Shown: positions 2,296-64,000 of the stretch, piece by piece
Numbering within the stretch: position 1 is the stretch's first letter
Layout: each line of letters starts with the position of its first letter
IMG/VR virus record: IMGVR_UViG_3300031951_000076
Coordinates: 1 to 64,000 of that record
Source of the DNA: a virus
Length of the DNA: 64,000 nucleotides
Direction: 5' to 3' (one strand)
Made by a program: the position numbers and the translations under genes
The notes under the pieces: model-generated
Databases searched by the model: none
The model's input: the letters and a program-made list of their open reading frames with translations, nothing else
Told to the model about the DNA's origin: nothing

Positions 2296-2706
2296 ATGTT
2301 AAATTCAATGCTTCTAATTACAGCAAACTGGAACAATAGAAAAAGTTTCAGAATGATTCCTTTCAGCAATGATTGTATTTATAACGAATGTATATTCGAT
2401 TTAGATACAAAAGTTCTTGCTGTTATTGGTAAAGAAAAAAAAGAAAGTTTTCACATGCTTCCTAAGCTCAATGAGTTTGGTGATTTGCAAAGAATGAAAA
2501 TTGGTAAAAGAGAAAATGGGAAAGATTATGCTGAAGAACGCAAATCTTTAGAAACATTTTACGAATATTACATTGAAGATATGAATGAAATTGAAGAATT
2601 TATCAAGTTAGTTGCAAGCAACTCAGATACATTTGATTTTAAAACATATCTTAATGCTGAACTTACTACTAGTACAGCTAGTGGTATTTTTGCACCAACT
2701 TTATAA
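2296..2706 (+). CDS. hypothetical protein (136 aa)
   Basis: ORF with A-rich leader, followed by a terminator. Confidence 0.75.
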   Translation: MLNSMLLITANWNNRKSFRMIPFSNDCIYNECIFDLDTKVLAVIGKEKKESFHMLPKLNEFGDLQRMKIGKRENGKDYAEERKSLETFYEYYIEDMNEIEEFIKLVASNSDTFDFKTYLNAELTTSTASGIFAPTL

Positions 2707-2723
2707 ATAGATACTATAATATT

Positions 2724-2752
2724 AAAAGCGCAGCTTTGTCTGCGCTTTTTTT
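2724..2752 (+). terminator. intrinsic terminator
   Basis: AAAAGCGCAG-ctttgt-CTGCGCTTTT hairpin followed by T tract. Confidence 0.85.
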
Positions 2753-2792
2753 ATCTTTAATGGGGAAACAGCTTAACTGAATACTATTTAAT

Positions 2793-4733: not shown

Positions 4734-4743
4734 AAATTTAAAA

Positions 4744-5550
4744 ATGGCTGCAAATACTCAATTTGTAACAGAAGCAATTGTAAGAAATGCGACTCTACCT
4801 AACCATGGTGGGCGCTATAGTGTTATACCTCACGGTTTTGTTATTGATCAAACTCGTAATCAATTATCAAGTCTTGGTATAGGTATAAAAAATGAATTAT
4901 ATAAGATTAATAAAGATGGGCAAATTGCTCAAGGTATTTATCATTTGGATGTACAAAATGATCCAGAAATGGGTATGATGTTTGCTTGGTCTAACAGCTA
5001 TAATAAAATGATGAAATTTAAGTGTGCTGTTGGTGCTCAAGTGTTTATTTGTATGAATGGTATGGTTGCAGGTGATATGGCTAGCTATGCAAGAAAGCAT
5101 GTAGGTCAAACTGCTATGAACGATGCTATTCAAAATATCCAAACACAGCTTACTTCAGCTAATACATTTTATACAAGGTTAATAGAAGACAAAAATATGC
5201 TTAAAAACATATCTTTGTCTAGAAAAGAGCAGTCATCACTGGTAGGTAGACTCTTCTGTGACGAAGAAATTCTTACACCTACACAAACAAGTATAGTTAA
5301 AAAAGAAATCCACAATCCAAGTTTTAACTATAATTGTTCAAATGATTCTGCGTGGGCATTGTATAATCACGTAACTTTGGCATTGAAGGAGTCTCACCCA
5401 ATTACGTATCTTTCTGACCATCAGAAAGTGCATGATTTCTTTGTAAACGAATTTGGTCAATTGGTTACTCCACAAATTATGGATGAGCAGTTGATTGAGG
5501 AAGTTGCAAATGAAATTGAAGCAGACGTTCTTGGTGTAAATTTCTTATAA
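4744..5550 (+). CDS. DUF932-like protein
   Basis: YSVIPH, NSYNK, GAQVFICMNGM, SAWALYNHVT motifs typical of DUF932/LGT_TIGR03299-like proteins. Confidence 0.7.
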   Translation: MAANTQFVTEAIVRNATLPNHGGRYSVIPHGFVIDQTRNQLSSLGIGIKNELYKINKDGQIAQGIYHLDVQNDPEMGMMFAWSNSYNKMMKFKCAVGAQVFICMNGMVAGDMASYARKHVGQTAMNDAIQNIQTQLTSANTFYTRLIEDKNMLKNISLSRKEQSSLVGRLFCDEEILTPTQTSIVKKEIHNPSFNYNCSNDSAWALYNHVTLALKESHPITYLSDHQKVHDFFVNEFGQLVTPQIMDEQLIEEVANEIEADVLGVNFL

Positions 5551-5571
5551 GAAAAAAACCAACAAAAGAGA

Positions 5572-5603
5572 GGGGGTGTCAATTTTGGCACCCCTAATTT
5601 TTT
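5572..5603 (+). terminator. intrinsic terminator
   Basis: GGGGTGTCAA-tt-TTGGCACCCC hairpin followed by AATTTTTT. Confidence 0.75.
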
Positions 5604-5631
5604 GTATTATTAAAACCTATTTGTAATTTTA
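5601..5631 (+). promoter_or_regulatory. candidate Bacteroidota-type promoter TTTG-N19-TAATTTTA
   Basis: -33 TTTG (5601-5604), 19-nt spacer, -7 box one mismatch from TAnnTTTG; directly after a terminator and before ATG 5646. Confidence 0.45.
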
Positions 5632-5645
5632 TAAAAATAAATTTT

Positions 5646-6365
5646 ATGGCATTAATAGGTATTAATGGATACGCAAATTCAGGCAAAGACGCTGTTGGAA
5701 TTATAATTCAATATTTAAATTGCACTAATGTAGGTAATTTAACAATTGAAGATGTAATAGAAGACTATGAAGCTCATCAGTGGTGGTTAGAAGAACAATC
5801 TGAATGGGAAATTAAAAAGTACGCAGGTAAGCTTAAAGATATAGCTAGTCATTTAACTGGAATACCTATTGAAGATTTTGAAGATCAAGAATTTAAAAAA
5901 CAAAATCTTGGACCACAATGGACTATTCACGGAATGCCTATGACTGTTAGACAATTTTTACAAAGGCTTGGTACAGATGCATTAAGAGATGGTCTTCATA
6001 CAAATGTATGGGTAAATGCTTTGTTTGCTGATTATCTTCCTTTAGAAGAAGAAGAGAATGTATTTAACAATCAATCAAAAACTATATTTGATGATGTAAT
6101 TAAAAAAGTTACCTACCCTAATTGGGTTATTACAGATGTAAGATTTATCAATGAGGCAAAAGCTATTAAAGATAGAGGAGGTATTATTATTAGAATAGAT
6201 AGACCTGGTGTTACAGCAATAAACAATCATCCATCTGAAACTGATTTAGACAATTGGAAATTTGATTATAAAATTGTAAATAATTCTGATTTAATATCTT
6301 TAAAGTTTAATGTAAAAAACATATTAGAGCATGCTACATTATCAAAAAAAGAAAAAGTATTATAA
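5646..6365 (+). CDS. deoxynucleoside monophosphate kinase (T4 gp1-like)
   Basis: P-loop GYANSGKD, AGKLKD, RQFLQRLGTD, ITDVRFINE, HPSE. Confidence 0.9.
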   Translation: MALIGINGYANSGKDAVGIIIQYLNCTNVGNLTIEDVIEDYEAHQWWLEEQSEWEIKKYAGKLKDIASHLTGIPIEDFEDQEFKKQNLGPQWTIHGMPMTVRQFLQRLGTDALRDGLHTNVWVNALFADYLPLEEEENVFNNQSKTIFDDVIKKVTYPNWVITDVRFINEAKAIKDRGGIIIRIDRPGVTAINNHPSETDLDNWKFDYKIVNNSDLISLKFNVKNILEHATLSKKEKVL

Positions 6366-6749
6366 ATGGATTACAGATGTAAATGTCCTTTTTGTAAAAA
6401 ACCAGATTGGATAAGTGTAGAAGATTATATTATTGAACTTTCTAAATTTTTAGGATATCCTAAATGCTGCACTAAACAATATTTAAAAGATAGATTAGAA
6501 AAAAAAGAATATTTTAATTGTTTTAGAACAAAAGCTGCTTTACGAATAAACAAGCTTTGTTCTTTTGATGCAGGATTTGTTCCTTGTAATTATCATGCTA
6601 GTAAAATTCTTTTTGAAAAGAAAAACTATAAAAGAATTTTTCGAAATAGGATATGCAGCACAGCTTTTCCATATGCTAGTACAGAAGAATTAAAAAGATA
6701 TCTAAAAAAAATTAAAAAGAACTATGCAAATAATAAAGCAAAAAACTAA
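6366..6749 (+). CDS. Cys-rich basic hypothetical protein (possible Zn-binding)
   Basis: CKCPFC and KCC motifs; abuts the kinase stop codon. Confidence 0.6.
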   Translation: MDYRCKCPFCKKPDWISVEDYIIELSKFLGYPKCCTKQYLKDRLEKKEYFNCFRTKAALRINKLCSFDAGFVPCNYHASKILFEKKNYKRIFRNRICSTAFPYASTEELKRYLKKIKKNYANNKAKN

Positions 6750-7575
6750 AACTCTTACAACAAGAGATAATGGGAGAAGTTCAGATGCAATTTCTCCCAA
6801 TTTTATCTATGGTTGTTTAGGAGGATGTATGAAATCTTATTGTTATGTAGGTAGATATAATAATGATAAAGTGTATATTAATGAAAACACAAATCATATT
6901 CTTCATTCCATGAAGAACTGGATGGAAAAACAACCATGGCCCAAGGTTCCTAATCAAGTAGATGATAAATATTATACTATAGATATAGGTTGTAGTACAG
7001 ATGTGGCTCTTATGAGTAAACATTATGACTGGCAAAAAGTATTTGATTTTTTTAATTTCTTTCCTAAAGTTAAAAGCACTTTTGCCACTAAGTATCCATC
7101 AATGTTTGATCCTACTAAATATAACCTAGACCCTTGGAAACATAGAATTAGAGTGAGTTTAATGCCTCAGAAGTATAGTAATGTACTAGAACCTAACACT
7201 GATCTTATATCTGATCGCATACAATCTATACCAAGACTGGAGAAATATATGGAAGTGCATATAAATTTCAGTCCTATTATCTTCCATGATGGGTGGTTAT
7301 ATGAATATGACGAATTGTTTAGAGAAATAGCATATTCAGGTATTGATGTAAAGTGTGAGTGTATTTTTCTTACGTATAACGATATACAACGTGAAAGAAA
7401 TGAACCTATTGTAAATCATTTATGTTGGAAGCCAGAAATACAAGAAAAGAAAGATTCACAATATGCGCCAGATAATATTAGATATAAATGGAATCTTAAA
7501 AGAGATATGATTGCAGAGTTTACAGGTTTATATTCTAGATACTTTGATCCAGCAAACATTAGATATATATTTTAA
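6724..7575 (+). CDS. spore photoproduct lyase-like radical SAM protein
   Basis: GCLGGCMKSYCY cluster motif; DIGCSTD (SplB EASCTSD-like), FATKY, RIRVSL, LEPNT, INFSPII. Confidence 0.8.
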   Translation: MQIIKQKTKTLTTRDNGRSSDAISPNFIYGCLGGCMKSYCYVGRYNNDKVYINENTNHILHSMKNWMEKQPWPKVPNQVDDKYYTIDIGCSTDVALMSKHYDWQKVFDFFNFFPKVKSTFATKYPSMFDPTKYNLDPWKHRIRVSLMPQKYSNVLEPNTDLISDRIQSIPRLEKYMEVHINFSPIIFHDGWLYEYDELFREIAYSGIDVKCECIFLTYNDIQRERNEPIVNHLCWKPEIQEKKDSQYAPDNIRYKWNLKRDMIAEFTGLYSRYFDPANIRYIF

Positions 7576-7577
7576 TT

Positions 7578-7919
7578 ATGAAACAAAAACCATTAACAAG
7601 AGATTTTCTATTAAGCAGAGGATTCTGTTGTAATAATGGTTGTAGAAATTGTCCTTATATGATAGCAAGTAAAACAGATACAGAGATTACAGAAGGTGAA
7701 GAAACATTCTGTATGTTTAAATTAGGAATGGAAGGTTCCTATATGACATCTTTAATAAATACAATATTTAAAGGTGATATGAATCATAGATTTAAATTAG
7801 CTAAAGGTTATCCTGAATTAGTAGAAGTATGTAACAAATACAATAATGAGTCAGGATACTGGCAGGAGTTAGTAGAAAGATGGAACAAAAAATATCCAAC
7901 GCATAAATTATATGCATAA
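7578..7919 (+). CDS. DUF5522-like Cys-rich domain fused to a hypothetical domain
   Basis: N-terminal LLSRGFCCNNGCRNCPY. Confidence 0.7.
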   Translation: MKQKPLTRDFLLSRGFCCNNGCRNCPYMIASKTDTEITEGEETFCMFKLGMEGSYMTSLINTIFKGDMNHRFKLAKGYPELVEVCNKYNNESGYWQELVERWNKKYPTHKLYA

Positions 7920-50551: not shown

Positions 50552-51478
50552 TTAAAATGGTTCAACTGACTTAAACATATCGTAATACTTAGAATACATT
50601 GCTTTTCTATTAGTTTTCCAAAGTGTATACATCTCTGAAAAATTTGGTGTATTTACAATAGTTAATGCGTTGTTTCTTGCAGCTCTTACTCTTGGTTCAA
50701 GCAATTGTATTTTTTGAGCAACATCTTCTCCATTAATAAATAAGTTTTCAAGAATGCGCTGTTTAATAGCATATTCATAGTATTCATTAATCATTGGGTG
50801 ATCAACAACTAAAAGATTACCATCATCATCCTCAAGTGTACCCTCGTATGAAATAAATACTTTACGATCAGTTTTTAAATTTACTACACCATAATCTGGG
50901 TAATCTTGATATCTTGGAACATCCATATACTTTTCACCAAGATCTATATATATAAAACCATTCTTTATAAAAGCTGATTTATATGTGTTATCTGTTGCAT
51001 CTTTTTTACCAGAGGATGGTGAAACACCTATTCTTTCAACAAGATTATATGTTCTTGTTTCAAATTTTCTTTTTTCTACAACTTGTACAAATATTCTTTC
51101 TCCTGTTTTGCATTCTACAGTGTATGTATGCTCACACCCACAAACACTCTCCTGTGAACCACATCTACCACATCTAGGTAAAACAACATTTTCAGTTTGT
51201 CTTCCAGAAAGAACTTCTCTTGTAACGGTGGTGTCACTACATAAGTAGGCATAATTTAATACATAGAAATCATCAGGAAGTCTAGATTTACCATGGCTCA
51301 GATCTAATACAACTTCTTTTGTACCATGAATACGCAATCCTAAATCATAATTAACCCGTTGTACAACTTTGATTAACTGACTTGGTTCAATAAAACCTTC
51401 CAAACTATACGTAGTAAAGTCAGCGGCAACTTCATTTAGTAACTGATCGAGTGTTCTATATTTTAATTCGGTGTTCAT
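50552..51478 (-). CDS. tail ring/tubular protein (308 aa)
   Basis: LPDDFYVL, IKNGFIY, VFISYEG..DDDGNLLVVDHP..YYEY; crAss-like synteny. Confidence 0.7.
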   Translation of the reverse strand: MNTELKYRTLDQLLNEVAADFTTYSLEGFIEPSQLIKVVQRVNYDLGLRIHGTKEVVLDLSHGKSRLPDDFYVLNYAYLCSDTTVTREVLSGRQTENVVLPRCGRCGSQESVCGCEHTYTVECKTGERIFVQVVEKRKFETRTYNLVERIGVSPSSGKKDATDNTYKSAFIKNGFIYIDLGEKYMDVPRYQDYPDYGVVNLKTDRKVFISYEGTLEDDDGNLLVVDHPMINEYYEYAIKQRILENLFINGEDVAQKIQLLEPRVRAARNNALTIVNTPNFSEMYTLWKTNRKAMYSKYYDMFKSVEPF

Positions 51479-52152
51479 GTTGTTGCACTATTTTGTTTAT
51501 CAATAGCTGTATCAGGTGGTATTTGATAAGTCATCATCAAATCTTTCATTACTTGAGCTTCTAACTCACCAAACAAGTAGTCTGGAATGTTAAAAGATTG
51601 ATCTTGTCTAGTTATGCAATCATCTTCTTTACATGTCCATAAACTAATATCATCTTCAAAAATTCCTTCTATTCTAACAGCATCCCATTCTAAGTTTGGA
51701 AAGTATAAGTAATCATCTAAAAACCAATAGTATTTAGCTTTATTATATTTAAATGTAGATCCATTAGATAACCTAACATAGTTTGTAGATGTAGTAGGTT
51801 GTAAAATATCAGAGTTGTCAATAGATGTAACAGCTCTAATAAGAGGACCAAAATATCCTTGCATAAAAACAGGAAGTTTGTCTTTTGTACGTTTAATTGT
51901 ACAATCTGCTTTTATACCTGCACAACAACCTTCCACTTTATCTACTTCTACAAGTTCTACACAATCAAGAGTTTGCATAGCTGAAGAAAAAACCATTAGT
52001 TTATTCTTGCTATCTTCACGTTTCATTAACCATTTTGCATGCTTTATTACAAATGAATAAAGCATACGATCAGTCATAAACGCATCTTGTTTGTTCGTTT
52101 TTAACTGATTACGCAAACGTGATAGAACATCTCCAATTGTAACTCTAGCCAT
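51475..52152 (-). CDS. tail ring/adaptor protein (225 aa)
   Basis: QTLDCVELVEVD..CC, YYWFLDDYLY, VRIEGIFED, C-terminal PPD; synteny. Confidence 0.7.
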   Translation of the reverse strand: MARVTIGDVLSRLRNQLKTNKQDAFMTDRMLYSFVIKHAKWLMKREDSKNKLMVFSSAMQTLDCVELVEVDKVEGCCAGIKADCTIKRTKDKLPVFMQGYFGPLIRAVTSIDNSDILQPTTSTNYVRLSNGSTFKYNKAKYYWFLDDYLYFPNLEWDAVRIEGIFEDDISLWTCKEDDCITRQDQSFNIPDYLFGELEAQVMKDLMMTYQIPPDTAIDKQNSATT

Positions 52153-52771: not shown

Positions 52772-52790
52772 AAGTTTCCTAAGTAAACTT
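52772..52790. promoter_or_regulatory. palindrome AAGTTT-N7-AAACTT upstream of the IHF-like gene
   Basis: Inverted repeat ~33 nt upstream of GTG 52738. Confidence 0.35.
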
Positions 52791-54007
52791 TAATTGTTTA
52801 CATTATACGTAAATTCAGATATTTTTCCTTTTTCAATATCATGCACTTCCATAACTGCTTGGCGTTTAGAACCAGTATATTTGTTGTGGTAATGCCAGTA
52901 GTCAGTAGAACAAAGGCTAGGAAGATGTTTAACAGCAAAACCATTGGTTTCATTTTCACTGACATATTCTGTTGTTTTTTTAGAATGAAAGTGTCCTGTG
53001 TAGCATGTACGATACTTTGTTTTGCCCCAAGAAATTGGAAACTCAGTTGCATAAATAAGTGGCGTGTTCTTTTTATTAACATCACCGTGTTCAAAAGCAA
53101 AAAAGTTGTGACCATACACCACAACTTTTCTTTCTGAATATTCTACATCAAAATAGATTGAGTAGTCTTCCTTATCAAAACACTTAGATAGTGCGTGAGC
53201 CAAATGGTAAGAACTAAGTCGATCGTGATTACCAGGAACATAAACTACATGAAGATTTTCACAAAACTGTTTAAGATAGCATATAGACCAATATAAAGAA
53301 TCAAATGCTTTTGTATATGCTTCATGAGCACGCAATTCATTGTTTACTGGAGTACCTGATGTTGTTGTACCATTAAAAGTATCCATATTTAAAAGATCGC
53401 CACCAATTACGTAAACAATTTTGTTTAGTTTATGAGACATATATGCTCTATGTACAAGATCTTTTATAGCTACTTTAAAGTTTTCTACTATATCATCATT
53501 ATGCTCTTTACCAAAGTGCAAGTCTTGTATTGATAAAATACTAACAGTGTCGTTTTCAAACTTATTATTTAGGTATATTTCACCTGTAACTGGTTGATAA
53601 TCAGGCTGAAAATTAGCTATTACATCAGCTAATATATCTTTTTGATCCTTTTTTATAGCTGTGACAAAAGCTGATATATGCCAACCATCATGCTTTTGCT
53701 TATTCCAATAGTTACTTAGTTTCCATTTAGTTGTATCTATTTTAAGGAGTTCTATTATTTCTTCTGCAGTCTTTGGCTCTACAGAAAATACTCCTTTTAT
53801 CTCAGCCTCACCTTTGTTTAAATCTTCTTTAACTTCTGTAATTCTATCTTTAATTACTGGTTGCAAATCAATATCAACCCACCTTGTTCTTAAAATTTCT
53901 TTTTTGATTTCTTTGTACTTTTGTATAGAAATACCTAATTTTACAGAACAGTAGTAGTCTGATTTTTTCCACTTAAGTGAGTTTTTAACTTGCTCGTGAA
54001 GATTCAT
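52790..54007 (-). CDS. calcineurin-like metallophosphoesterase (405 aa)
   Basis: DLHFG, GGDLLNMD, VPGNHD, FEHGD, TGHFH motifs in order. Confidence 0.9.
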   Translation of the reverse strand: MNLHEQVKNSLKWKKSDYYCSVKLGISIQKYKEIKKEILRTRWVDIDLQPVIKDRITEVKEDLNKGEAEIKGVFSVEPKTAEEIIELLKIDTTKWKLSNYWNKQKHDGWHISAFVTAIKKDQKDILADVIANFQPDYQPVTGEIYLNNKFENDTVSILSIQDLHFGKEHNDDIVENFKVAIKDLVHRAYMSHKLNKIVYVIGGDLLNMDTFNGTTTSGTPVNNELRAHEAYTKAFDSLYWSICYLKQFCENLHVVYVPGNHDRLSSYHLAHALSKCFDKEDYSIYFDVEYSERKVVVYGHNFFAFEHGDVNKKNTPLIYATEFPISWGKTKYRTCYTGHFHSKKTTEYVSENETNGFAVKHLPSLCSTDYWHYHNKYTGSKRQAVMEVHDIEKGKISEFTYNVNN

Positions 54008-54051: not shown

Positions 54052-54090
54052 TAAAAAAATATAGCCCCAACGTAGACACGCCAGGGCTGT
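54052..54090 (-). terminator. intrinsic terminator of the glycosyltransferase operon
   Basis: Minus strand AGCCCTGGCGT-GTCT-ACGTTGGGGCT (three G-U pairs that fit only on this strand) then ATATTTTTTT. Confidence 0.8.
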
Positions 54091-54123: not shown

Positions 54124-55443
54124 TTATTCAAAAGATATATCAAAAAAGTTACCTCTTTGTTTTATATCATCTGTGTTAATTCCTTTGTAATTTAAAAAAG
54201 GAATAACATCTATATAAAACTGTTCTTGATCTTCTTTCCAACCTGGGTGAAAAGAAATATGCATTGGTACATTTAAATCCCAAAGAACTGATTTTTCTTT
54301 CAGCAGTTCTTGTTCATGACCTTCAACATCTATTTTTATAACAGAGATATTACTTTCAGATAGGTTATATTTTTCTAAAATTTCTTTAATTGAAATACAA
54401 TCAACTGATATTAAATTTTCTGTAGCTGAATCTCTTGTAATACTTTCCCCTAAAACAGCAGAACCTAATTGTAATTTAGTTTTTGTAGAAACAGCTTTGT
54501 CTTCTAAAATAATATTTGATATATTATTTAATTTAATATTTTCTACAAACTCTGCATGAGCAACTGGATCAGGTTCAAAACATATACAGTTCTTTGAATA
54601 TTTTGAAGCTACTAATGATATAGGACCTATCCACGATCCTATATCTATAAATGTTTTATTTTTATCAAGTTTTGGAACAATAAAATCAAAGGTTGATTGT
54701 TCCCACCAAGAATAATGATCTAACCAAAATTTTGTTGTAACTGGTGTATTTTGTACATTAAATTCCAAACCACCTTTATTTACCTTATGACTCATATTAA
54801 TAGTTGATTTTAATTTGGTTCCCCAACATGATATACTTGATGCTGCAGTGTTTAAATAATATTTCCATTCATCTGTAATATTTTCATCTGTTAAATACCA
54901 CGGTGTGTGTTTTATACAATATGGTTTATCTAATCTTAAGGCATCATATGCAAAACCAGAAAATGGTCTATATAAAGCAAATGTTGTATCAATATGAGCA
55001 TCCCATCCAATATCTTTTCTGTTTATCCAATACTTACTTTCCCATTCTCTTGCTTGCCTTCCTATTTCTGTTTCAGGTAAATCACTTATATCTAATGAAA
55101 ATCCAACTTTAAAAACATCAGTGTTTTCTAAAACATTAATCATTTTATCAAGCCAATCATTTGGAACGTCATCATACAAGCAATCTGAATCAGCTATTAT
55201 AAAATAGTTATCGTTAAAGTAAGGTCTTAATTGATCACCCCATACAGAATGGGGACCATTATTTTGACTAGAATAAACAACAGTTACACCTGAGTTATTA
55301 TAATATTCTAATAATGGAGGATATGTAGATTGCTGATCAAAAATTACAATCTCAATTCTTGGTTCTTTTAAAAGAAAGTTAACAGCGTTTTTTAAAGAAC
55401 TAATGAGATTTCTATTGACAATAAATGCTTTAATCTTTTTCAA
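54124..55443 (-). CDS. GT-A/GT2-like glycosyltransferase fused to an FkbM-family SAM methyltransferase (TTG start)
   Basis: N-half FDQQSTYPPLLEYY, IADSD, IDTTFALY; C-half FIDIGSWIG, FEPDP, KIDVEGHE. Confidence 0.85.
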   Translation of the reverse strand: MKKIKAFIVNRNLISSLKNAVNFLLKEPRIEIVIFDQQSTYPPLLEYYNNSGVTVVYSSQNNGPHSVWGDQLRPYFNDNYFIIADSDCLYDDVPNDWLDKMINVLENTDVFKVGFSLDISDLPETEIGRQAREWESKYWINRKDIGWDAHIDTTFALYRPFSGFAYDALRLDKPYCIKHTPWYLTDENITDEWKYYLNTAASSISCWGTKLKSTINMSHKVNKGGLEFNVQNTPVTTKFWLDHYSWWEQSTFDFIVPKLDKNKTFIDIGSWIGPISLVASKYSKNCICFEPDPVAHAEFVENIKLNNISNIILEDKAVSTKTKLQLGSAVLGESITRDSATENLISVDCISIKEILEKYNLSESNISVIKIDVEGHEQELLKEKSVLWDLNVPMHISFHPGWKEDQEQFYIDVIPFLNYKGINTDDIKQRGNFFDISFE

Positions 55444-56179
55444 GAAAATCTTTTAAAAGTTGTTTATAATCTTGTTCCCAATGTGGGTTCAAATATACAT
55501 CACCTGTAGGAACATAACCTAACTTACGCATGTATTCAACATGTTCACTATGTCTTTGTATCACATTTGGTCTGTCACTAGTATCTGTACCTGCACCACT
55601 CATATGATAACTTCTACCTCCCCACATATAAAACCAACTCACTTCATTGTCTGGTGGAGCAGCAAATACAACATTTTGTGAATTATATCGAATATTCATT
55701 ACAAATGTCATATCATATCCTGCATTCTCATGTGGATGTTTTCCAAGATTTTCCCAAATTCTTTTACTATAAACAATGCCTGAATTACCTAATCCTGTAA
55801 TATCAGTAATTGCTTTATTGTTAAAGAAAACTCCACGATGCCAGTGTAAAAGATCTGTATCTTCTTTAAAATACTTTGCAATATTTGTTAGATGATTTGG
55901 AAGTGCAACATCGTCATCGTCCCAAACTGCAATTATATTAGATGAACATTGACTTACAGCAAAGTTTTCTTTTTCACCAATTGTTTGAAATGTGTAATCT
56001 AAATTATAAATTTTTATTTCAGGATGGTCAAAGATTAATTTTTGTAAAGGGTAATCGTTTACAATAATCATTTCTTTTTTACCAGGATAGTCTTGATTAA
56101 TAAAAGAATAAATACTTTCTTCTAATAAATCCACTCTACCATACGTTATACATTTTGCAGATATAAAAGGATAATTCAT
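55430..56179 (-). CDS. GT2-family glycosyltransferase (249 aa)
   Basis: ISAKCITYGR, IIVND, IGEKEN, AVWDDDD, GYD. Confidence 0.85.
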   Translation of the reverse strand: MNYPFISAKCITYGRVDLLEESIYSFINQDYPGKKEMIIVNDYPLQKLIFDHPEIKIYNLDYTFQTIGEKENFAVSQCSSNIIAVWDDDDVALPNHLTNIAKYFKEDTDLLHWHRGVFFNNKAITDITGLGNSGIVYSKRIWENLGKHPHENAGYDMTFVMNIRYNSQNVVFAAPPDNEVSWFYMWGGRSYHMSGAGTDTSDRPNVIQRHSEHVEYMRKLGYVPTGDVYLNPHWEQDYKQLLKDFLEKD

Positions 56180-57102
56180 ATAAGCGCTGATGTTTTAGAA
56201 GTGTTAATAATTTCTTCAGCATACTTATATGAACAAAAATCTTTATTAAGATTTTGAATTTCTATATCATATGGTAATACTAATTGATACTTGCCTTTAA
56301 AAAATAAATCAGTTCTGTCAGAAGTTACACCTGCATTATGAAATATAGGATGTTTATCCCATTCACTAACTGGAGATGTAGCCCAAGAAAAAGAAAGTTT
56401 ATTAGTTACTAATACTTGCTTATCCCAAAACCAAAGATTCCAAAGAACTGCCCACATATCAGCACACCAAATTTGTAGTTCATGATATGAAGGATCTAAT
56501 GCTTTATCTTTATCAATTTCATGTGTAATTAATCTAAAAAGATTTTCAGCATCATAATATACTTTTTTCCAAAACTCTGCAGGAATTCCTTTTAAAATAT
56601 ATTGTGCTCCACCACTATTTTTTTCTTGCTCAATAATGTATTGTTTATTAACATTAACTATATCAGCCATAAAATCAAGATACTTTTCACCTTTAGATCT
56701 AACATAGTTTGCACCAATATAACTTACAGTATCGCTTACATAACAATTATCATCTTCAAGAAGTCCTTTAAAATCTAATGGTTTTGCAAAAATAATATCG
56801 CAGTCATGATAGAAAATAGTTTCATGTTCTAATTCAGGATGCTGCAACCAATGCTTGTACAAAACATGGGGACGTATACTGGATATATAACAAGGTTTTT
56901 GCCTGTTATCTGGATAAAAATAAAATCTCGTATCAGTGTATTTTGCTGCAAGTTTTTGCCATTTTTCAGAAACATGTCCATGGTGCCCACATACAATTTG
57001 AATATCTTTTGGATCTACACCATTTCTAACAAAGTTATTAATCATAACTTCTACTTGCCATGTATAATAATCTATGGCAGGTTGTACGCATAAAAATTTC
57101 AT
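56176..57102 (-). CDS. GT-A fold glycosyltransferase resembling peptide O-glycosyltransferases (HPAT/SGT-like)
   Basis: YHDCDIIF (DxD), GGAQYIL, WCADMWA (cf. W..EMY), IFHNAG. Confidence 0.7.
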   Translation of the reverse strand: MKFLCVQPAIDYYTWQVEVMINNFVRNGVDPKDIQIVCGHHGHVSEKWQKLAAKYTDTRFYFYPDNRQKPCYISSIRPHVLYKHWLQHPELEHETIFYHDCDIIFAKPLDFKGLLEDDNCYVSDTVSYIGANYVRSKGEKYLDFMADIVNVNKQYIIEQEKNSGGAQYILKGIPAEFWKKVYYDAENLFRLITHEIDKDKALDPSYHELQIWCADMWAVLWNLWFWDKQVLVTNKLSFSWATSPVSEWDKHPIFHNAGVTSDRTDLFFKGKYQLVLPYDIEIQNLNKDFCSYKYAEEIINTSKTSALI

Positions 57103-57119
57103 AAATGTTGGTTTTTTTA

Positions 57120-57127
57120 CAAATATA
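57120..57127 (-). promoter_or_regulatory. TATATTTG -7 element upstream of the glycosyltransferase operon
   Basis: Exact TAnnTTTG match 17 nt before ATG 57102; same TATATTTGTA at 60288-60297. Confidence 0.5.
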
Positions 57128-57136
57128 TTAAATAAA

Positions 57137-59605
57137 TTAACAATATCCTATTGCTTGTACAAATGATGTTCCTCCAAAAATACCACCTTGAAAACATACA
57201 GTATTACCAGGCGCAAGTGAAAAGTTATTTGACCAGTTAACACAATAATCTGACCAACCACTTACACTTACAAAAAAAGTAGATGTATTTAAATATTCAA
57301 CAGATGGTGCAACTACATATGTAGGAGAAGTGCTAGTAGAACCATCTGTAAAAAATACTCTTAATCTGATTTCAAAAAATGTTGCAACTGGAGGAGTAGC
57401 ATAAAGACTAAGTATATTACATATATTTAAAAAACCAGATTGTACATTAGTTGCAGCAGGACTGCTTTGTGTCCAACTTAACCAATTTTGTTGTCTATGA
57501 TCTAGAAATACAGCGCTAACACATTTACAATTATCACCTAAAAGACCCCATAGAATTGTTTGATTACAACCACTTCCCCCAAAAGGTGCTGATGTAACAG
57601 TTGCTATTGTAGCGCCTGGATAACAAGTTCCACCTGGATTTCCTGAAATAAAAGGTGTGCAAGTATTTGTACCTGAAACACATGCGGGTGCAATTGTTGT
57701 AGTGCTGGTAGAAGTAGTTGTTGGTGGACCTGTCACCACAAAACTATTAGATGCAGGACAAATTCCACTTACACTCACAATTCTTAACTGAACAAGAGAT
57801 CCTATTGGTATTTGAAAAGGTAACACAGTTGATGAAGATAAACAACCTGTACCTCCTACCACATTATTCCAAGGAGTCCAAGATGTACCTGTACCACTTG
57901 TATCAGCTCTAAATTGAACTTGAGAACATGTGTTACAACCTACTGTTGGAATTGTGTAATTTATTTGAACAGTTTGACTACCCGTGCCACCACCTGATAT
58001 TGAACGAGCATCAGTAATTGTTGGAGAACAGCATATTGGAGGAGCTAACGTAGTAGTTGTACTAGTTGATGTTGTGCTAGTAGTCGAAGTGGTAGTCGAA
58101 GTGGTTGTAGTAGATGTAGAAGTTGTTGTTGTAGTTGGATTACATACCCCTCGATTTAATGCTTTAAAACCATAAGGATCAGGAAGATTGCTATTAGGTA
58201 CATTTACCCATAAATTAGATACACAACTTAAAATACAACTAGCTGGGTAAGGACCAGCTAAGGGACTATAAGCTACAATAGCTGATGGTGCAAATGGAGG
58301 TGTTAAAGATGTGTTAGTTGCATAAGCAACAACCCACGCACCTCCTGGCAGATAAGTAGAACTATTATCCCAATATATGTATAGTACTTCAGGATCTGGT
58401 GGATCAACAATAAATTTATACCACACCTTACCATTTACGAGTGTTGTCTCAGGGAATAAACTTTGTTCAATATTACCAAAGTTTTCTGAAAATGCATAAA
58501 AACAAATATTTTCTGGACATTTTCCTAACGCACTACTGCATACTGCAGGTGTTAATGCATTATTACAATCAGGAGTCCATTGATTAGTTGAACTACTTAT
58601 AGGTAAAGCGTTACCACCATTATCAAGTGTTTGAAAAATTGAACCTGCTCCTAAACCATCTATATCCCAAACCCATTTATTAATAGAAGGTAGCCAATAA
58701 ACAGCTAAACTAGTTGCATAACCATACCACACTTTACCATTATATAAAACTGGTGATGTACCGATTGGTAAATCTTCATAACCTAGACCACCTTGTTCTG
58801 CTGCAACTATAAAACACATTGTTGGATCAATAGTAGTTGTAGTTGTTGTGGAACTAGTTGTTGTGGAGCTTGTTGTAGTGCTTGTGCTACTTGTTGTTGA
58901 TGTTGATGTAGTAGTACTTGTTGTTGAAGTACTAGTAGATGTAGTAGTACTAGTTGTTGAAGTAGTAGTTGTAGTGGGGCAATTTTCTAAAAGTGAAGAA
59001 TCTATAAACCCTACACTTGTTCCACCAACTACTTGTGGTGTCCATAATGGAGGATTTATACCATTAGTAACTGGATATTGTGCTGTTGATGGAAGTGTTT
59101 GAATTATTCCACCAAATGATGAATCTTCATGAACCCACTGTGTACCATCATAATACACTCTTCTTAATGGAGAATTGTCAAAAACATATTGAGGTTTACC
59201 ATTTATTTGAGAAGCATTACCGCCTGATGATAATTGTATATTATAAAAACAAGCATTACCTACACATTCTATATATAAATTAAAACATATATTAGGAAAT
59301 ACAGTAGTTGTGGTCGTAGTAGAAGATGTTGTAGTTGTTGAAGAAGTTGTACTACTTGTGGTGGTGCTAGTTGATGTACTGGTAGTAGTAGTTGGTAAAA
59401 TAATTGGTATATTACAACTACTAGTATTTGACGTAGCTATTAAAGCTATTACACCTGGTGATACATCAACTAGCATGCCTGCTAACAAATCTGCTGTATT
59501 TACAACAGATGGGTTAACAGTACCGCCAGCAGGTATTGTAGATAAAGTCATCGTTGGACCAAATCCAGAACCAAGAGGACCATTTATTTGTACAAATACA
59601 AACAT
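57137..59605 (-). CDS. Thr/Ser-rich mucin-like structural/fibre protein (822 aa)
   Basis: Four poly-T/S tracts; three ~100-aa repeats (CF..NGK(P/V)xY..W..W); two FN3-like C-terminal domains; Cys-rich. Confidence 0.8.
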   Translation of the reverse strand: MFVFVQINGPLGSGFGPTMTLSTIPAGGTVNPSVVNTADLLAGMLVDVSPGVIALIATSNTSSCNIPIILPTTTTSTSTSTTTSSTTSSTTTTSSTTTTTTVFPNICFNLYIECVGNACFYNIQLSSGGNASQINGKPQYVFDNSPLRRVYYDGTQWVHEDSSFGGIIQTLPSTAQYPVTNGINPPLWTPQVVGGTSVGFIDSSLLENCPTTTTTSTTSTTTSTSTSTTSTTTSTSTTSSTSTTTSSTTTSSTTTTTTIDPTMCFIVAAEQGGLGYEDLPIGTSPVLYNGKVWYGYATSLAVYWLPSINKWVWDIDGLGAGSIFQTLDNGGNALPISSSTNQWTPDCNNALTPAVCSSALGKCPENICFYAFSENFGNIEQSLFPETTLVNGKVWYKFIVDPPDPEVLYIYWDNSSTYLPGGAWVVAYATNTSLTPPFAPSAIVAYSPLAGPYPASCILSCVSNLWVNVPNSNLPDPYGFKALNRGVCNPTTTTTSTSTTTTSTTTSTTSTTSTSTTTTLAPPICCSPTITDARSISGGGTGSQTVQINYTIPTVGCNTCSQVQFRADTSGTGTSWTPWNNVVGGTGCLSSSTVLPFQIPIGSLVQLRIVSVSGICPASNSFVVTGPPTTTSTSTTTIAPACVSGTNTCTPFISGNPGGTCYPGATIATVTSAPFGGSGCNQTILWGLLGDNCKCVSAVFLDHRQQNWLSWTQSSPAATNVQSGFLNICNILSLYATPPVATFFEIRLRVFFTDGSTSTSPTYVVAPSVEYLNTSTFFVSVSGWSDYCVNWSNNFSLAPGNTVCFQGGIFGGTSFVQAIGYC

Positions 59606-59617
59606 ACTTTATATAAA

Positions 59618-60250
59618 TTAAGAAATCTTCTTAACAAAAATTCTAGTTGGTGTATTATTAGCATCTGAAGGGAATGGTGACTGTGCACTTGGGTTCATAC
59701 AAACACTATAATAACCAGCAGCTGTTACTTCAAGTATAAGTGTAGCATTAATTATCTGATCAGCAGCTGCAGCTTCAACTGATTTATAATCATTCAAAAG
59801 AGTAATTGAACTCATTGCTCCACCTGATGTAGTAGAAGAAGATACTCTTACAAGGATATCAACATTACTAGTAAAATCAAAAAAGTGAATTTGAGTAGTT
59901 ATCTCATAAATACCAGGTTGCTTAAAATGAATACGAGCTCCTTGGTTAGCATTAGTTCCAGCTACAGATCCAGAATTAACAAGCTCAAACACATCTGTAT
60001 TTGTGTTAAATAGTACACTGTTCCATGGAATGTAGTTATCTATTCCATTTGTCATATTACCATATTGAGCACTTGTAGGATAAGCTCCTCCTGATCCAGG
60101 GTTAACCCAGCTAAATCCAGCTGAAGGAGTTGTGAAGTTCTCTTTTTTCACCCTGTAGGTGGTTGCTCCTGTACTGTCATTCATTACAATTTCAGCACCC
60201 TGCGTGTTCCCAGTAAATAAAGGAAGAGCAGAAATTTTTACGTTAGGCAT
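59618..60250 (-). CDS. C1q/TNF-like jelly-roll fibre-tip protein (210 aa)
   Basis: KISALP N-terminus typical of fibre proteins; IPWNSVLFN, HFKQPGIYEITTQI, LEVTAAGYYSV strands. Confidence 0.65.
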   Translation of the reverse strand: MPNVKISALPLFTGNTQGAEIVMNDSTGATTYRVKKENFTTPSAGFSWVNPGSGGAYPTSAQYGNMTNGIDNYIPWNSVLFNTNTDVFELVNSGSVAGTNANQGARIHFKQPGIYEITTQIHFFDFTSNVDILVRVSSSTTSGGAMSSITLLNDYKSVEAAAADQIINATLILEVTAAGYYSVCMNPSAQSPFPSDANNTPTRIFVKKIS

Positions 60251-60289
60251 AGTTTTTAAAATTTAAAAGTTAAAATATTTAGGGTTATA

Positions 60290-60297
60290 CAAATATA
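60290..60297 (-). promoter_or_regulatory. TATATTTG -7 element upstream of the C1q-like gene
   Basis: Exact TAnnTTTG match in the intergenic region. Confidence 0.45.
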
Positions 60298-60304
60298 ATA
60301 TAAT

Positions 60305-63300
60305 CTATTGTTCTGTTATTAACAAATCATTGTTTTCAGCTTGAAGCTCATCATTTAATTCAGTTGATATAAAGTTACTAGGATCTGCAGTGGTAGTAGT
60401 TGTAGTACTAGTAGAAGTTGTACTTGTTGTAGTTGGAGTCGTACAAGTACCATCAATATATTCAATTTCAACAGCATCTGTACTTGAAATTGTTAAAGAT
60501 GATGTTGTATAATTTCCAGTACCTATAACATCTATACACTCAACTATAACACTGTTAATTTTAATATTAAGTTTTGATGTAGGTGCAGCTGTTCCTATAT
60601 TAATAGTCAAAGCACCAACATAACCACCATGAACACCTTCTGCAGTTTGACCATTTGTAACAGGTAAACTACCTACTGTTATAATATACCAAGAAGGTGT
60701 AATATTATCTAAACTAGATCCTGCAGATGTATTATTAGTTACAAACAAACTTCCAGAAGGTAATGTTGTTGTGGTTGTAGTACTAGTTGTTGTGGTCGTA
60801 CTAGTTGAGGTAGTCGTTGTTGTAGTAGGTTCCTCTGTAGTAGTTGTTGTTGTACTAGTTGTAGACGTTGTTGATGTCGTAGTAGTAGTAGGCTCTTCTG
60901 TAGTCGTAGTTGTAGTACTTGTTGTGGTCGGTTCTTCAGTTGTCGTAGTAGTTGTTGAAGTAGTTGTAGTTGTGCTTGTGGTAGTTGTAGGACATATTGA
61001 TTGCTCTATAACTAAATCTTCATCATTCTCAGCAGTTATGGAATCATCTCCTTCACTTGCTAACAAACATAAAGTAGCAGGATCTATTGTAGTAGTTGTA
61101 GTTGTACTGGTTGTAGAAGTAGTGGTAGTGGTTGGCTCCTCTGTAGTAGTAGTGGTCGTACTAGTTGAAGTAGTCGTAGTTGTAGGTTCCTCTGTGGTTG
61201 TAGTAGTTGTAGAAGTTGTACTAGTAGTAGGTTCTTCCGTAGTCGTAGTTGTAGTACTGCTACTAGTAGTAGTTGTGGTAGGTTCTTCTGTTGTAGTTGT
61301 TGTAGTAGAAGATGTTGTTGTACTGCTAGTAGTAGTAGTTGTTGGTGCACAAGACTGACAATCGTTAGGGAAACCTGATAGCAAACATCCAACTTCACAT
61401 GGGGTAGTTGTTATATCCCCAGTTATATTAATTGGTGTTCCAGCAAGAACACAAGCTGTTATAGTGATGTTTGTTCCTATTATACCAATAGTATCTGGAG
61501 TTCCGTTACATTGTATATAATCTATATTTCCTCCTACTGTAGGGCCTGAAGTAAAGCTATAGCAGAAGCAACAAGACTCAGCTACAATATTATCATCATT
61601 CTCAGCTGTTATAGGATCATCACTTTCAGTAGATATGAAACACAATGTAGCTGGATCTAACGTGGTAGTAGTCGTAGTGCTTGACGTTGTGGTAGTACTA
61701 GTTGAAGTTGTAGTAGTGGTGGGTTCTTCAGTTGTTGTAGTTGTAGTTGTCGGCTCCTCAGTAGTAGTAGTAGTGGTTGTAGGTTCCTCAGTAGTAGTAG
61801 TAGTGGTAGTACTTGTACTTGTTGTAGTAGTCGAAGTAGTAGTTGTACAAGTTGTTACAAAACTTTTTGCTCTTACATTTCCTAAAGAATCTGTAAATGC
61901 TATCCAATAAGTTCCTACAGCAACACCTCCTTGTGAATATACTACAGATGTACCAACTGTCCAACTAGTATTAGATAATGCTGCAGCTTCACTTGTAAAC
62001 CAAAAATTACCAAAAGCATAACCTGTGCCTGAACCTCCTGTTGGGTTATTTGCTGTAACCTCAATTGATTGAGTTGCAGCATTTACGCATACTACAGATA
62101 CTATATCAAAGTCTAATGGACAAGGTGATTGTTCTATAGCTAAATTATCATCATTTTCCCCTGTTATAGGATCATTCCCTTCTGTAGCTATCAAACAAAA
62201 TGTAGCAGGATCTAATGTTGTACTAGTTGTTGTCGTTGTTGTGCTAGTGGTACTAGTTGTAGTAGTAGACGTTGTAGGTTCTTCAGTTGTTGTGGTCGTT
62301 GTAGTACTTGATGTTGTTGTTGTCGTAGGTTCTTCTGTGGTTGTCGTAGTTGTACTAGTACTTGTTGTAGTAGACGTTGTAGTGGTGCTTGTGCTACTTG
62401 TAGTTGTAGTTGTACTAGTAGTAGTTGTCCCAGGACTATCACATAATAAACCAAATGCAAAGTTAGTTCTGTATTCACTATATGTAGCCTGAATCTGAAT
62501 TTGTGTATGTGTTCCGGGAAACTGTACAATACCATAACCTTCATTACCAGATATAGTGTAACTATTAGATCCAAATACTACACCGCTGTCTCCCACTGTA
62601 AGGTCTGTTGGTGTAACAGCACAAGGTCCAGCAGCATTAAATCCACATCCAGGAAGTTCAATAAATGGTACATTAGGTTTAAACAACTGCTGTGTTACAG
62701 GGCTACCCAAAGACCATATACCAAGAATAGGATCAGCAATTGGTGATGAGAAATTAAAGGTGATTGTCACTATTCCAGCAATATTACCTTTAATATAGTA
62801 TGAATTACCACTTGGTGCAACATTACCATAACTTGTACAAGTAATACCATTAGTACATTGTACAGGTTCAACACCTGTGGGATTAAGAGGATCAAATCCA
62901 TCACCAGGACCTGCAGGACCATTGGTAGACATTGTGATACCAATTATACCTTGTTTAGCAGTATTTATAGATCCTTCAGTATAATTATCACCAACATTCT
63001 GCCATACAATTTGACAAAGTGTAGTAGTAGTTGTTGTTACAGGACATTCTTCAGTTCTAAGTTGATCATCATTTTCTGCTGTAATTGGTTCATCAGCTTC
63101 AGTAGCAAGTAAACAAATATTGTTTGGATCTTCAGTAGTAGTAGTTGTAGTAGAAGATGTAGTAGAAGATGTTGTAGAAGATGTTGTAGGGATTGTACCT
63201 GTACCACCACCATTGCTACAAGGATCTTCTGTAGTTGTAGTTGTAGTGGATGTTGTTGTAGTAGTAGACGTAGTTGTTGTAGGACAAGCACTTGCATCAC

Positions 63301-64000
63301 CACTTCCTGGAACAGTACAAGGTGGTTCATATATACATAAATCAAATGTACCAATTTGACCACTCGATGGTCCACCATACCCCCAAAATCTTACATAAAT
63401 TGTATCGCCAGATGTTAATCCTGTTAAATGTATAAACGGCATTGATGAACCTGATACATCGTCAACACAATAAGTTTGTGTAAGAGATTGACAATCTGAA
63501 CCTTCGTAAATTGCTAAAGCACCATCTGTAATTTGATTTGCTCTTGTACTTACAAGCACATTACCGCTGGCAGGAACTATAAATCTTAACCATAAATCAT
63601 GACCTAAATAATTTCCACAAGTTGGAATTGGTAAAGATGCACCTATACTAGGAGTTGTATATGTTGTATAAACACAATTACACTGAACTGGAACTAATGT
63701 TGAAACACAAGCATTTGTTCCTGGTTGAGCTGTTGTAGTAGTTGTAGTTGAAGTAGTACTTGTTGTTGATGATGTAGTACTAGTACTTGTTGATGTAGAT
63801 GTAGTTGTCGTTGAAGTAGATGTGCTAGTAGTTGATGTGGTAGTGGTTGTTGTGGATGTAGTTGTAGTGGTACATCTTAGATTTAGTTTATCTAATATAA
63901 TATCTACAACTTCTTGAACATTCATTCCTTTTTTTACACCAGCGCAATCGTAGTCACTTCCATTATAAACAATACACTCTGACTCAACAATAATATCACA
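60305..64000 (-). CDS. mucin-like Thr-rich modular fibre/spike protein (5'-partial, >1231 aa)
   Basis: Frame stays open past ATG 63925 to the window end (CDIIVESECIVYNGSDYDCAGVKKG); poly-Thr tracts, ~12 EEP(T)n units, 5 acidic repeats, interspersed beta domains. Confidence 0.85.
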   Translation of the reverse strand, partial: CDIIVESECIVYNGSDYDCAGVKKGMNVQEVVDIILDKLNLRCTTTTTSTTTTTTSTTSTSTSTTTTSTSTSTSTTSSTTSTTSTTTTTTAQPGTNACVSTLVPVQCNCVYTTYTTPSIGASLPIPTCGNYLGHDLWLRFIVPASGNVLVSTRANQITDGALAIYEGSDCQSLTQTYCVDDVSGSSMPFIHLTGLTSGDTIYVRFWGYGGPSSGQIGTFDLCIYEPPCTVPGSGDASACPTTTTSTTTTTSTTTTTTEDPCSNGGGTGTIPTTSSTTSSTTSSTTTTTTEDPNNICLLATEADEPITAENDDQLRTEECPVTTTTTTLCQIVWQNVGDNYTEGSINTAKQGIIGITMSTNGPAGPGDGFDPLNPTGVEPVQCTNGITCTSYGNVAPSGNSYYIKGNIAGIVTITFNFSSPIADPILGIWSLGSPVTQQLFKPNVPFIELPGCGFNAAGPCAVTPTDLTVGDSGVVFGSNSYTISGNEGYGIVQFPGTHTQIQIQATYSEYRTNFAFGLLCDSPGTTTTSTTTTTSSTSTTTTSTTTSTSTTTTTTEEPTTTTTSSTTTTTTTEEPTTSTTTTSTTSTTTTTTSTTLDPATFCLIATEGNDPITGENDDNLAIEQSPCPLDFDIVSVVCVNAATQSIEVTANNPTGGSGTGYAFGNFWFTSEAAALSNTSWTVGTSVVYSQGGVAVGTYWIAFTDSLGNVRAKSFVTTCTTTTSTTTTSTSTTTTTTTEEPTTTTTTTEEPTTTTTTTEEPTTTTTSTSTTTTSSTTTTTTLDPATLCFISTESDDPITAENDDNIVAESCCFCYSFTSGPTVGGNIDYIQCNGTPDTIGIIGTNITITACVLAGTPINITGDITTTPCEVGCLLSGFPNDCQSCAPTTTTTSSTTTSSTTTTTTEEPTTTTTSSSTTTTTTEEPTTSTTSTTTTTTEEPTTTTTSTSTTTTTTEEPTTTTTSTTSTTTTTTIDPATLCLLASEGDDSITAENDEDLVIEQSICPTTTTSTTTTTSTTTTTTEEPTTTSTTTTTTEEPTTTTTSTTSTTSTTTTTTEEPTTTTTTSTSTTTTTSTTTTTTLPSGSLFVTNNTSAGSSLDNITPSWYIITVGSLPVTNGQTAEGVHGGYVGALTINIGTAAPTSKLNIKINSVIVECIDVIGTGNYTTSSLTISSTDAVEIEYIDGTCTTPTTTSTTSTSTTTTTTADPSNFISTELNDELQAENNDLLITEQ
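60310..63125 (-). repeat. five copies of acidic repeat (L/I)x(T/S)ExxDxIxAENxDxLxxE, each following a poly-Thr tract
   Basis: LLATEADEPITAENDDQLRTE, LIATEGNDPITGENDDNLAIE, FISTESDDPITAENDDNIVAE, LLASEGDDSITAENDEDLVIE, FISTELNDELQAENNDLLITE. Confidence 0.85.

Follow-up and report, generated by a model that had tools for sequence, protein, structure and literature searches.

Threonine/serine tracts beside a glycosyltransferase cassette in a freshwater crAss-like phage: a candidate system for virion O-glycosylation

To our knowledge, experimental proof that phages glycosylate their own particles exists for mycobacteriophages only, and the primary study, which we know through papers that cite it, is reportedly that of Freeman et al. 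(2023, Cell Host Microbe 31:1216). In three such papers (PMC12363180, PMC12619734, PMC13313380), the virions of mycobacteriophages Che8, Corndog and Myrna are described as O-glycosylated by phage-encoded enzymes, with the glycans on the C-termini of capsid and tail-tube subunits and with genes for glycosyltransferases (GT) and sometimes methyltransferases. Shielding of the particles from antibody binding is reported in one of these papers (PMC12363180). This is the closest precedent for the locus considered here, a cassette of three enzyme genes that directly follows genes with very long threonine/serine (Thr/Ser) tracts in IMG/VR virus record IMGVR_UViG_3300031951_000076, a freshwater crAss-like phage. 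The window that we analysed is the first 64,000 bases of this 88,670-base record, and the whole record was scanned as well. Comparative genomics suggests that the tracts are probably O-glycosylated by the cassette.

The likeness to the mycobacteriophages lies in the combination of phage-encoded glycosyltransferases with a methyltransferase, the window contributing one enzyme of predicted GT-A fold and two GT2-type domains. In addition, Gram-positive relatives of the first enzyme also lie beside tail or capsid proteins with C-terminal tags. The enzyme family differs, however, and no mycobacteriophage was among the 77 isolate phage records that matched the first enzyme in a tblastn search, a comparison made with this enzyme only. 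The presumed acceptors also differ: instead of short tails they are long, nearly pure Thr/Ser tracts, with 877 residues spread over seven genes that encode large multi-domain proteins. The window phage, moreover, is a crAss-like phage with a presumed Bacteroidota host.

Three cellular systems offer further comparisons. The serine-rich repeat adhesins of Gram-positive bacteria are glycosylated by priming through GtfA/GtfB, followed by GT8-type enzymes such as GlyE. The proposed phage pathway would likewise be a soluble, cytoplasmic, stepwise O-glycosylation of long Ser/Thr tracts, with genes that adjoin the substrate and variable elongating enzymes, and GlyE is among the fold matches of the first enzyme (Z score 13.0). 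The adhesin pathway differs in that priming is carried out by a GT-B (GT4) pair rather than a GT-A enzyme, in that the substrates are exported bacterial adhesins, and in that no sequence homology was detected. As in mucin-type glycosylation (GT27) and the plant HPAT (GT95) and SGT1 (GT96) systems, a DxD-containing GT-A enzyme would start chains on Pro-flanked tracts rich in hydroxy amino acids, giving rise to bottle-brush stalks. However, the window enzyme falls below every Pfam threshold, its solved fold neighbours belong to GT8, GT24 and GT77, and it has no signal peptide or membrane anchor; the reaction would therefore be cytoplasmic and not take place in a secretory compartment. By analogy, the cassette would work like the serine-rich-repeat and mucin-type pathways, but it stands outside those families. 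Bacteroidota, the presumed host phylum, O-glycosylate many Ser/Thr sites by a general periplasmic system that transfers a lipid-linked glycan to the motif D-(S/T)-(A/I/L/V/M/T). Whereas this system acts after export, with a lipid-linked donor and on a three-residue motif, the window enzymes are phage-encoded and predicted to be soluble, and the tracts are homopolymeric.

We defined a tract as a stretch in which at least 9 of 10 residues are S or T and at least 6 are T. By this definition, the whole record contains 36 tracts that together comprise 877 residues, the longest of 50 residues. All of them are confined to seven consecutive minus-strand genes of the structural block (57140-72638), and none was found elsewhere in the whole record, giant proteins included. 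An earlier reading of the window made from its letters only (hereafter the sequence-only reading) had pointed to long Thr/Ser tracts in two genes; both carry them, and the feature is larger than that reading had noted. The Thr codons of the tracts are mixed (ACA 266, ACT 256, ACC 57, ACG 42) and several Ser codons are used too, so that the tracts are maintained as protein composition rather than being simple repeats of DNA. Their abundance is far beyond chance; for comparison, 56 related loci without the enzyme yield a single tract, 10 residues long. In the tract protein of 1266 residues, 18 tracts with 379 residues, many of the form (T)n-E-E/D-P, alternate with small Cys-containing globular domains. 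Four of the tract proteins share a similar N-terminal domain of about 70 residues, which is also present in relatives.

Pairing of enzyme and tract was examined in two sets of viral loci. The first set consisted of 80 loci with a homologue of the first enzyme (46-84% identity), and 72 of these have a Thr-tract open reading frame (ORF) on the same strand. The tract ORF mostly ends no more than 100 bases upstream of the enzyme gene; of about 120 tract ORFs, just 3 are found downstream of it. Among the eight exceptions, at least three (loci L017, L050 and L054) have less than 1 kb of upstream sequence. The second set comprised 80 loci fetched via the exonuclease-like gene next to the cassette, and the 70 with at least 6 kb of upstream sequence were counted. 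Enzyme and tracts were both present in 14 of them and both missing from 55; no locus had the enzyme without tracts, and one lacked the enzyme but had a single minimal tract of 10 residues. When the tract rule was tightened slightly and the window was included, tracts were present in 15 of 15 loci with the enzyme and absent from 56 of 56 loci without it. The sequence-only reading had proposed co-occurrence in relatives as its own test, and for the first enzyme the outcome is very strongly favourable. It is not so for the trio as such, since GT2 and GT2::FkbM enzymes are interchangeable.

On a tree of the exonuclease-like protein, the enzyme and tract traits each need four changes, and these fall in the same places. 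Within the crAss-like lineage by itself this is suggestive; with four changes only, it is not conclusive. In one sister pair, L098 has enzyme and tracts and L100 has neither; here the entire block upstream of the exonuclease-like gene was exchanged.

The pairing also extends to a conserved protein. The first gene of the tract block encodes a 524-residue protein with a conserved core of 400 residues and orthologues in 76 loci. In relatives without the enzyme, the S/T run is at most 6 residues in all 37 distinct tails, most of which stop 15-21 residues past the core. In the window phage, the core is followed by a 35-residue tract and then by a further domain, and four of six enzyme-bearing relatives have a Thr run of at least 5 after the core: in two of these the S/T run measures 23 and 18 residues, and in the other two the Thr run measures 6 and 5. 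Swapping of whole genes fails to explain the gain of a tract in this protein.

These loci bear on an alternative reading, in which the tracts are unmodified spacers between fibre domains and the enzymes act on host envelope polysaccharide or lipopolysaccharide, for instance blocking superinfection or changing the receptor, while their adjacency results from a hypervariable and often exchanged block. GT2 and FkbM enzymes are indeed typical of polysaccharide pathways, in the crAss-like lineage the block ahead of the exonuclease-like gene changes as a unit, and the link between enzyme and tracts is one of comparative genomics. We nevertheless regard envelope modification as unlikely. Enzymes for lipid-linked envelope glycans are often membrane-associated, whereas the three window enzymes are without membrane-like segments. 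The pairing holds in 72 of 80 diverse loci with strict upstream adjacency, and the conserved 524-residue protein has a tract only where the enzyme is present. Moreover, in Gram-positive siphoviruses the homologue lies among head and tail genes, in several of them directly beside the major tail or capsid gene, and it is a conserved protein, not a swapped fibre gene, that bears the tract, as a short tag at its C-terminus.

The siphoviruses were found when 50,697 isolate phage records were searched with the first enzyme (tblastn, E values up to 1e-5); most of the 77 matching records are siphoviruses of Gram-positive hosts. At the nucleotide level, a search of the cassette against isolate phages gave a single 140-nt match, to Enterococcus phage nattely. 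In all eight isolate phages examined, whose hosts are Enterococcus (two), Lactobacillus, Lactococcus, Chryseobacterium, Arcanobacterium, Clostridium and Mammaliicoccus, proteins of the structural module near the enzyme gene carry poly-Thr tags. The tagged proteins include annotated major tail, capsid and portal proteins as well as small unnamed ones. In Enterococcus phage phiFL1A, the enzyme gene lies between the major tail protein gene and gp52 and gp53, which precede a tape-measure-like gene, and the tail protein ends in a 23-residue Thr/Ser tail. Pure Thr runs are present in Enterococcus phage VPE25, Lactobacillus phage iLp84, Lactococcus phage bIL285, Arcanobacterium phage TPWB06, Clostridium phage FA88 and a Mammaliicoccus phage; they either form the C-terminus of a tail, capsid or portal protein or are part of a small protein encoded just ahead of the enzyme gene. 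In Chryseobacterium phage MA9V-3, two tract proteins are encoded immediately ahead of it. Such pairing across unrelated virion architectures is the strongest evidence for the tracts as the probable substrate. As a separate observation, VPE25 has an unannotated frame of 52 codons with a pure Thr run (L006 5725-5880) in the gap immediately ahead of the enzyme homologue; the frame may encode a small tagged protein overlooked in annotation, or it may extend the preceding gene by a frameshift.

The first enzyme matches phrog_4417 (E 1e-75), a family without a name that comprises 2,652 clusters at 90% identity and 852 representatives at 50%. It has no match in Pfam, NCBIfam or PDB sequences, and thus no curated-family membership by sequence. 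An AlphaFold model, built from an alignment with 42 relatives (predicted local distance difference test score, pLDDT, 97.4), was placed in the GT-A fold by two structure searches (Foldseek probability 1.00), the nearest structures being retaining GT8, GT24 and GT77 enzymes. The best matches were the Skp1 alpha-galactosyltransferase (Z 14.6), glycogenin (14.5), LgtC (14.4) and the UGGT catalytic domain (14.1), and WbbM, LARGE1 and GlyE of the pneumococcal serine-rich-repeat pathway were also found. Matches with Z 13-14.6 to 6mw8, 1zcu, 1g9r, 6fsn and 5gvv, the last being the GlyE structure, cover 211-246 residues at 7-13% sequence identity. Among the top matches, which include the Skp1 galactosyltransferase, glycogenin, LgtC, UGGT and GlyE, several work on proteins or protein-bound glycans. 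Retaining GT-A enzymes of the GT8/GT24/GT77 kind have a DxD...His metal site. In the motif D100-C-D102 of the first enzyme, D102 is invariant and D100 nearly invariant among 43 relatives, and H255 is invariant as well; as judged from conservation, the three residues would fit this metal site.

Membership of the plant families GT95/GT96 was considered and rejected, as the HPAT profile (PF23452, cut-off 23.9 bits) finds nothing in the record at E values up to 10. The same profile touches 2 of 43 members of the phrog_4417 family (best E 0.09) and is the only Pfam family touched by more than one member. A language-model search gave a nearby viral Atlas cluster (score 0.97), 10% of whose members carry the HPAT family. 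A very distant kinship of the first enzyme to plant HPAT/SGT1 is conceivable.

The first enzyme gene and the two that follow it overlap by 4 and 14 nt, respectively, and lie on the minus strand right after the tract genes, as the sequence-only reading had described (Table 1). The identities given there, a DxD-containing GT-A enzyme, a GT2 and a GT-like/FkbM fusion, also hold up: the first follows from the model fold and the DCD motif, and the other two from profile matches. The N-terminal domain of the fusion is GT2-like (32.1 bits, DSD at 85), and its C-terminal part matches TIGR01444 (78.7 bits, cut-off 37.7) and PF05050 (34.6 bits, cut-off 22.7) at residues of about 264-417. Presumably, the GT2 enzyme elongates the glycan and the fusion both adds a sugar and methylates. 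No membrane-like segment was found in any of the three enzymes (maximal 19-residue hydropathy below 0.85), and all three are predicted to be soluble. Solubility and the late position in a structural array argue against DNA or the host envelope as targets.

The cassette had also been credited with a sequence element and a terminator of its own. Both the TATATTTG element, in the 34-nt gap ahead of the first enzyme gene, and a hairpin of 11 pairs just after the last enzyme gene are present, and their positions alone are suggestive of a promoter and terminator of the cassette's own. The element fits the Bacteroidota -7 promoter element, TAnnTTTG. Since this motif is no commoner in the window than expected (100 occurrences against 112), TATATTTG is weak evidence for a promoter; likewise, sigma-70-like and terminator-like sites are at shuffle level across the region as a whole.

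Table 1. Coordinates of the cassette, its flanking elements and the adjoining genes (positions in the window; aa, amino acids; SAM, S-adenosylmethionine)
Feature	Position	Strand	Description
Presumed priming glycosyltransferase	56176..57102	-	308 aa, phrog_4417 family, predicted GT-A fold
GT2-family glycosyltransferase	55430..56179	-	249 aa; PF00535 43.8 bits, cut-off 23.3; DDD at 87-89
GT2-like::FkbM fusion	54124..55443	-	439 aa; GT2-like ~12-139, FkbM-family SAM methyltransferase ~260-420
TATATTTG element	57120..57127	-	in the gap ahead of the first enzyme
Terminator-like hairpin	54063..54088	-	11 pairs, 6 of them G-C, then T-run
Thr/Ser-tract protein	60305-64105 of the record (window part 60305..64000)	-	1266 aa; ORF crosses the window edge
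Tract-free protein	59618..60250	-	210 aa, between two tract genes; no family match
Thr/Ser-tract protein	57137..59605	-	822 aa, 4 tracts, 124 residues, longest 50; last presumed acceptor gene ahead of the cassette

The first enzyme alone is conserved among relatives, and homologues of the window GT2 and GT2::FkbM enzymes follow it in few of them. In L012 and L013, the GT2 and GT2::FkbM proteins are 80% and 59% identical to those of the window, though the first enzyme is just 61% identical. In the closest relative, whose first enzyme is 84% identical, the downstream genes instead encode a GT6 enzyme, an unknown protein of 447 residues and a free-standing FkbM enzyme. A Pfam census of 76 downstream ORFs gave GT2 (22), DXD-type sugar-binding transferases (7), capsule-synthesis type (5), FkbM (4), GT6 (4) and TcdA/TcdB-type proteins (4), together with several SAM methyltransferases and one each of GT25, GT29 and radical SAM/SPASM. 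GT32-like genes are also among the downstream genes, and long homologues of the first enzyme are fused to a GT6, GT2, methyltransferase or radical SAM domain. Such variability is the pattern that would be expected of one priming enzyme with changeable elongating and decorating enzymes, and the recurring methyltransferase fits a possible methylation of the sugar. With downstream sets that vary even among close relatives, the structure of the glycan is likely to vary between phages.

Two further observations concern this variability. The GT29 (sialyltransferase-family) gene follows the priming enzyme in one related phage (E 6e-19) and the radical SAM/SPASM gene in another, which points to the possibility of unusual sugars, or of additional chemistry on the tracts, in some phages. 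In L090, the exonuclease-like gene is 84% identical to that of the window and the priming enzyme only 46%, from which we conclude that the glycosylation module has been exchanged between close relatives.

The tract proteins are taken to be virion parts, as we infer from gene position and from the isolate-phage examples. The 524-residue protein looks like a fibre or decoration protein in its predicted structure (pLDDT 69), which has long helices, possibly coiled coil, an FN3-like sandwich at residues of about 290-400 (pLDDT about 95) and a disordered tract. Neither this protein nor the 210-residue tract-free protein gave meaningful PDB sequence matches; the latter has an orthologue with 70% identity in the closest relative. 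According to a different reading, the first enzyme does modify the tracts, and either the proteins are not stable parts of the particle, serving as assembly aids or as binders of particles or polysaccharide that are released on lysis, or the modification is not a sugar chain and may be, for example, a single sugar phosphate. The tract proteins are without a match to known virion proteins, and phosphosugar transferases (Stealth, GlcNAc-1-phosphotransferase) are among the weaker fold matches of the first enzyme (Z about 9.3-10.2). Against this stand the tags on annotated tail, capsid and portal proteins of isolate phages, the location of the tract genes between head and tail-ring genes, the best fold matches (Z 13-14.6), which are sugar transferases with the DxD...H arrangement, and the partner genes, which are more glycosyltransferases. 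We consider such a role outside the particle, or a chemistry other than a glycan, to be improbable.

Other features of the tract proteins were noted in passing. Three proteins of the tract block have very Cys-rich starts (60305-64105, 64113-64430 and 71055-72629 of the record), and nine Cys residues of the 524-residue protein (C13, C20, C30, C34, C51, C192, C217, C294, C391) are invariant in 34 orthologues. Such Cys-rich segments are unusual in proteins assembled in the cytoplasm and suggest metal sites or disulfides formed after lysis. Acidic repeats with the pattern (A/S)(T/S)E..D(P/S)IT(A/G)END.. occur at least four times in the product of 60305-64000, at residues of about 274, 580, 765 and 956 of a 1206-residue reading. 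They mostly come after a Thr tract plus a short (L/I)DPA..C or EDP..C motif and could be calcium-binding or docking sites.

If the tracts are O-glycosylated, the following course of events can be envisaged. The three enzymes and their seven presumed substrates would be synthesized together in the host cytoplasm when infection is at a late stage. The first enzyme would transfer a sugar from a host-made nucleotide sugar to Thr/Ser hydroxyls of the tracts, the GT2 enzyme and the GT2 half of the fusion would lengthen the glycan, and the FkbM half would O-methylate a sugar. The glycosylated proteins would then be incorporated into the particle, where the coated tracts would form stiff, protease-resistant, hydrophilic stalks on fibre-like appendages; stiffening, shielding and adhesion are the benefits that we infer. 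The specific order of priming, elongation and methylation, which is read from the enzyme families, is put forward tentatively and may well turn out otherwise.

Several points weigh against glycosylation of the tracts by the cassette. The four changes on the exonuclease-like tree are few, only two of them are on well-supported branches, and a sign test (p 0.5) cannot reach significance. Tract genes and enzyme share one hypervariable, swapped block, and linkage could explain part of the crAss-like pattern; it leaves unexplained the short C-terminal tags in siphoviruses and the tract in the conserved 524-residue protein. The tract proteins have no Pfam or PHROG matches and are placed in the particle by gene position, and the model of the 524-residue protein matched generic FN3 domains only, with no solved crAss phage virion protein among the matches. 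The fold neighbours of the first enzyme mostly glycosylate sugars or Tyr, not Thr. As the sequence-only reading had stated for the window, genes for nucleotide-sugar synthesis are missing: none was found among the genes scanned (estimated completeness of the record, 74%), so that any donors would have to come from the host. Finally, no paper on phrog_4417-family enzymes, poly-Thr phage proteins or glycosylation in crAss-like phages was found in the literature searched.

The assignment of the record to crAss-like phages is based on a match of 51475-52152 to CrAss_Ring_2 (PF25702, 83.5 bits, cut-off 27), a tail ring protein that is a crAss-like hallmark. Terminase, portal and major head protein were identified by PHROG matches on the minus strand in the rest of the record, as families and not as crAss-specific ones. 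In order of transcription, the minus-strand array consists of terminase, portal, head genes, Thr-tract genes, enzyme cassette, exonuclease-like gene, ring protein 2 and a run of giant ORFs of 1,026 to 3,889 residues. The G+C content of the window is about 30%. A short replication block on the plus strand (672-7919) encodes a PD-(D/E)XK nuclease, a DNA polymerase and a deoxynucleotide monophosphate kinase.

This arrangement is relevant to the idea that the enzymes glycosylate phage DNA and so protect it against restriction, as happens in T4-like phages among others. DNA modification is the best-known role of glycosyltransferases in phages (discussed in PMC12619734), and the presence of the kinase would be in line with it. 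However, the genes scanned did not include one of the hydroxymethylase type, the cassette belongs to the structural array and not to the replication block, and the strict pairing with Thr tracts would be left unexplained, so that we give this idea hardly any weight.

Two neighbouring genes deserve mention in their own right. A metallophosphatase-type "DNA repair exonuclease" (phrog_704, E 3e-51) at 52790-54007, the exonuclease-like gene used above, lies between the enzyme cassette and the ring protein gene; it has the same position in 80 of 80 relatives fetched and is oddly placed within a block of virion genes. A spore-photoproduct-lyase-like protein (PF20903, E 5e-10) is encoded at 6724-7575, within the plus-strand replication block.

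Freshwater and lake metagenome runs from several studies contain nearly the entire stretch, and no RNA dataset was listed as containing it. In addition, 54124-58000 is nearly complete (share 0.79-0.94) in runs of four samples that carry no mark as a possible source of this DNA. One of them is labelled freshwater, another lake water, and the label of the remaining two is "fungus metagenome"; the phage is thus found repeatedly in different samples.

Taken together, the comparisons make a shared two-part system somewhat more likely than not. One part would be a poly-Thr tag that any protein of the particle may bear, the other a soluble priming enzyme of the phrog_4417 family that recognizes the tag, with interchangeable elongating and methylating enzymes producing a phage-specific glycan. 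The system would span crAss-like phages of Bacteroidota and siphoviruses of Enterococcus, Lactococcus, Lactobacillus, Clostridium and staphylococci. In the window phage it would operate on the largest scale seen, with about 880 acceptor residues on seven fibre-like proteins forming a mucin-like coat. Since isolate phages with the enzyme gene exist, the idea is directly testable.

If this is true, glycosylation of the particle would be widespread and modular, occurring in crAss-like phages as well as in phages of enterococci and lactic acid bacteria that are well studied and culturable. A poly-Thr run in a phage protein could then be taken as a glycosylation tag, and a function would be assigned to a family of unannotated proteins that numbers about 2,650 when clustered at 90% identity. 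Phages would have variable "glycan types", with effects on how they adsorb, how stable they are, how they adhere to mucus or particles, and how they are recognized by the immune system in phage therapy.

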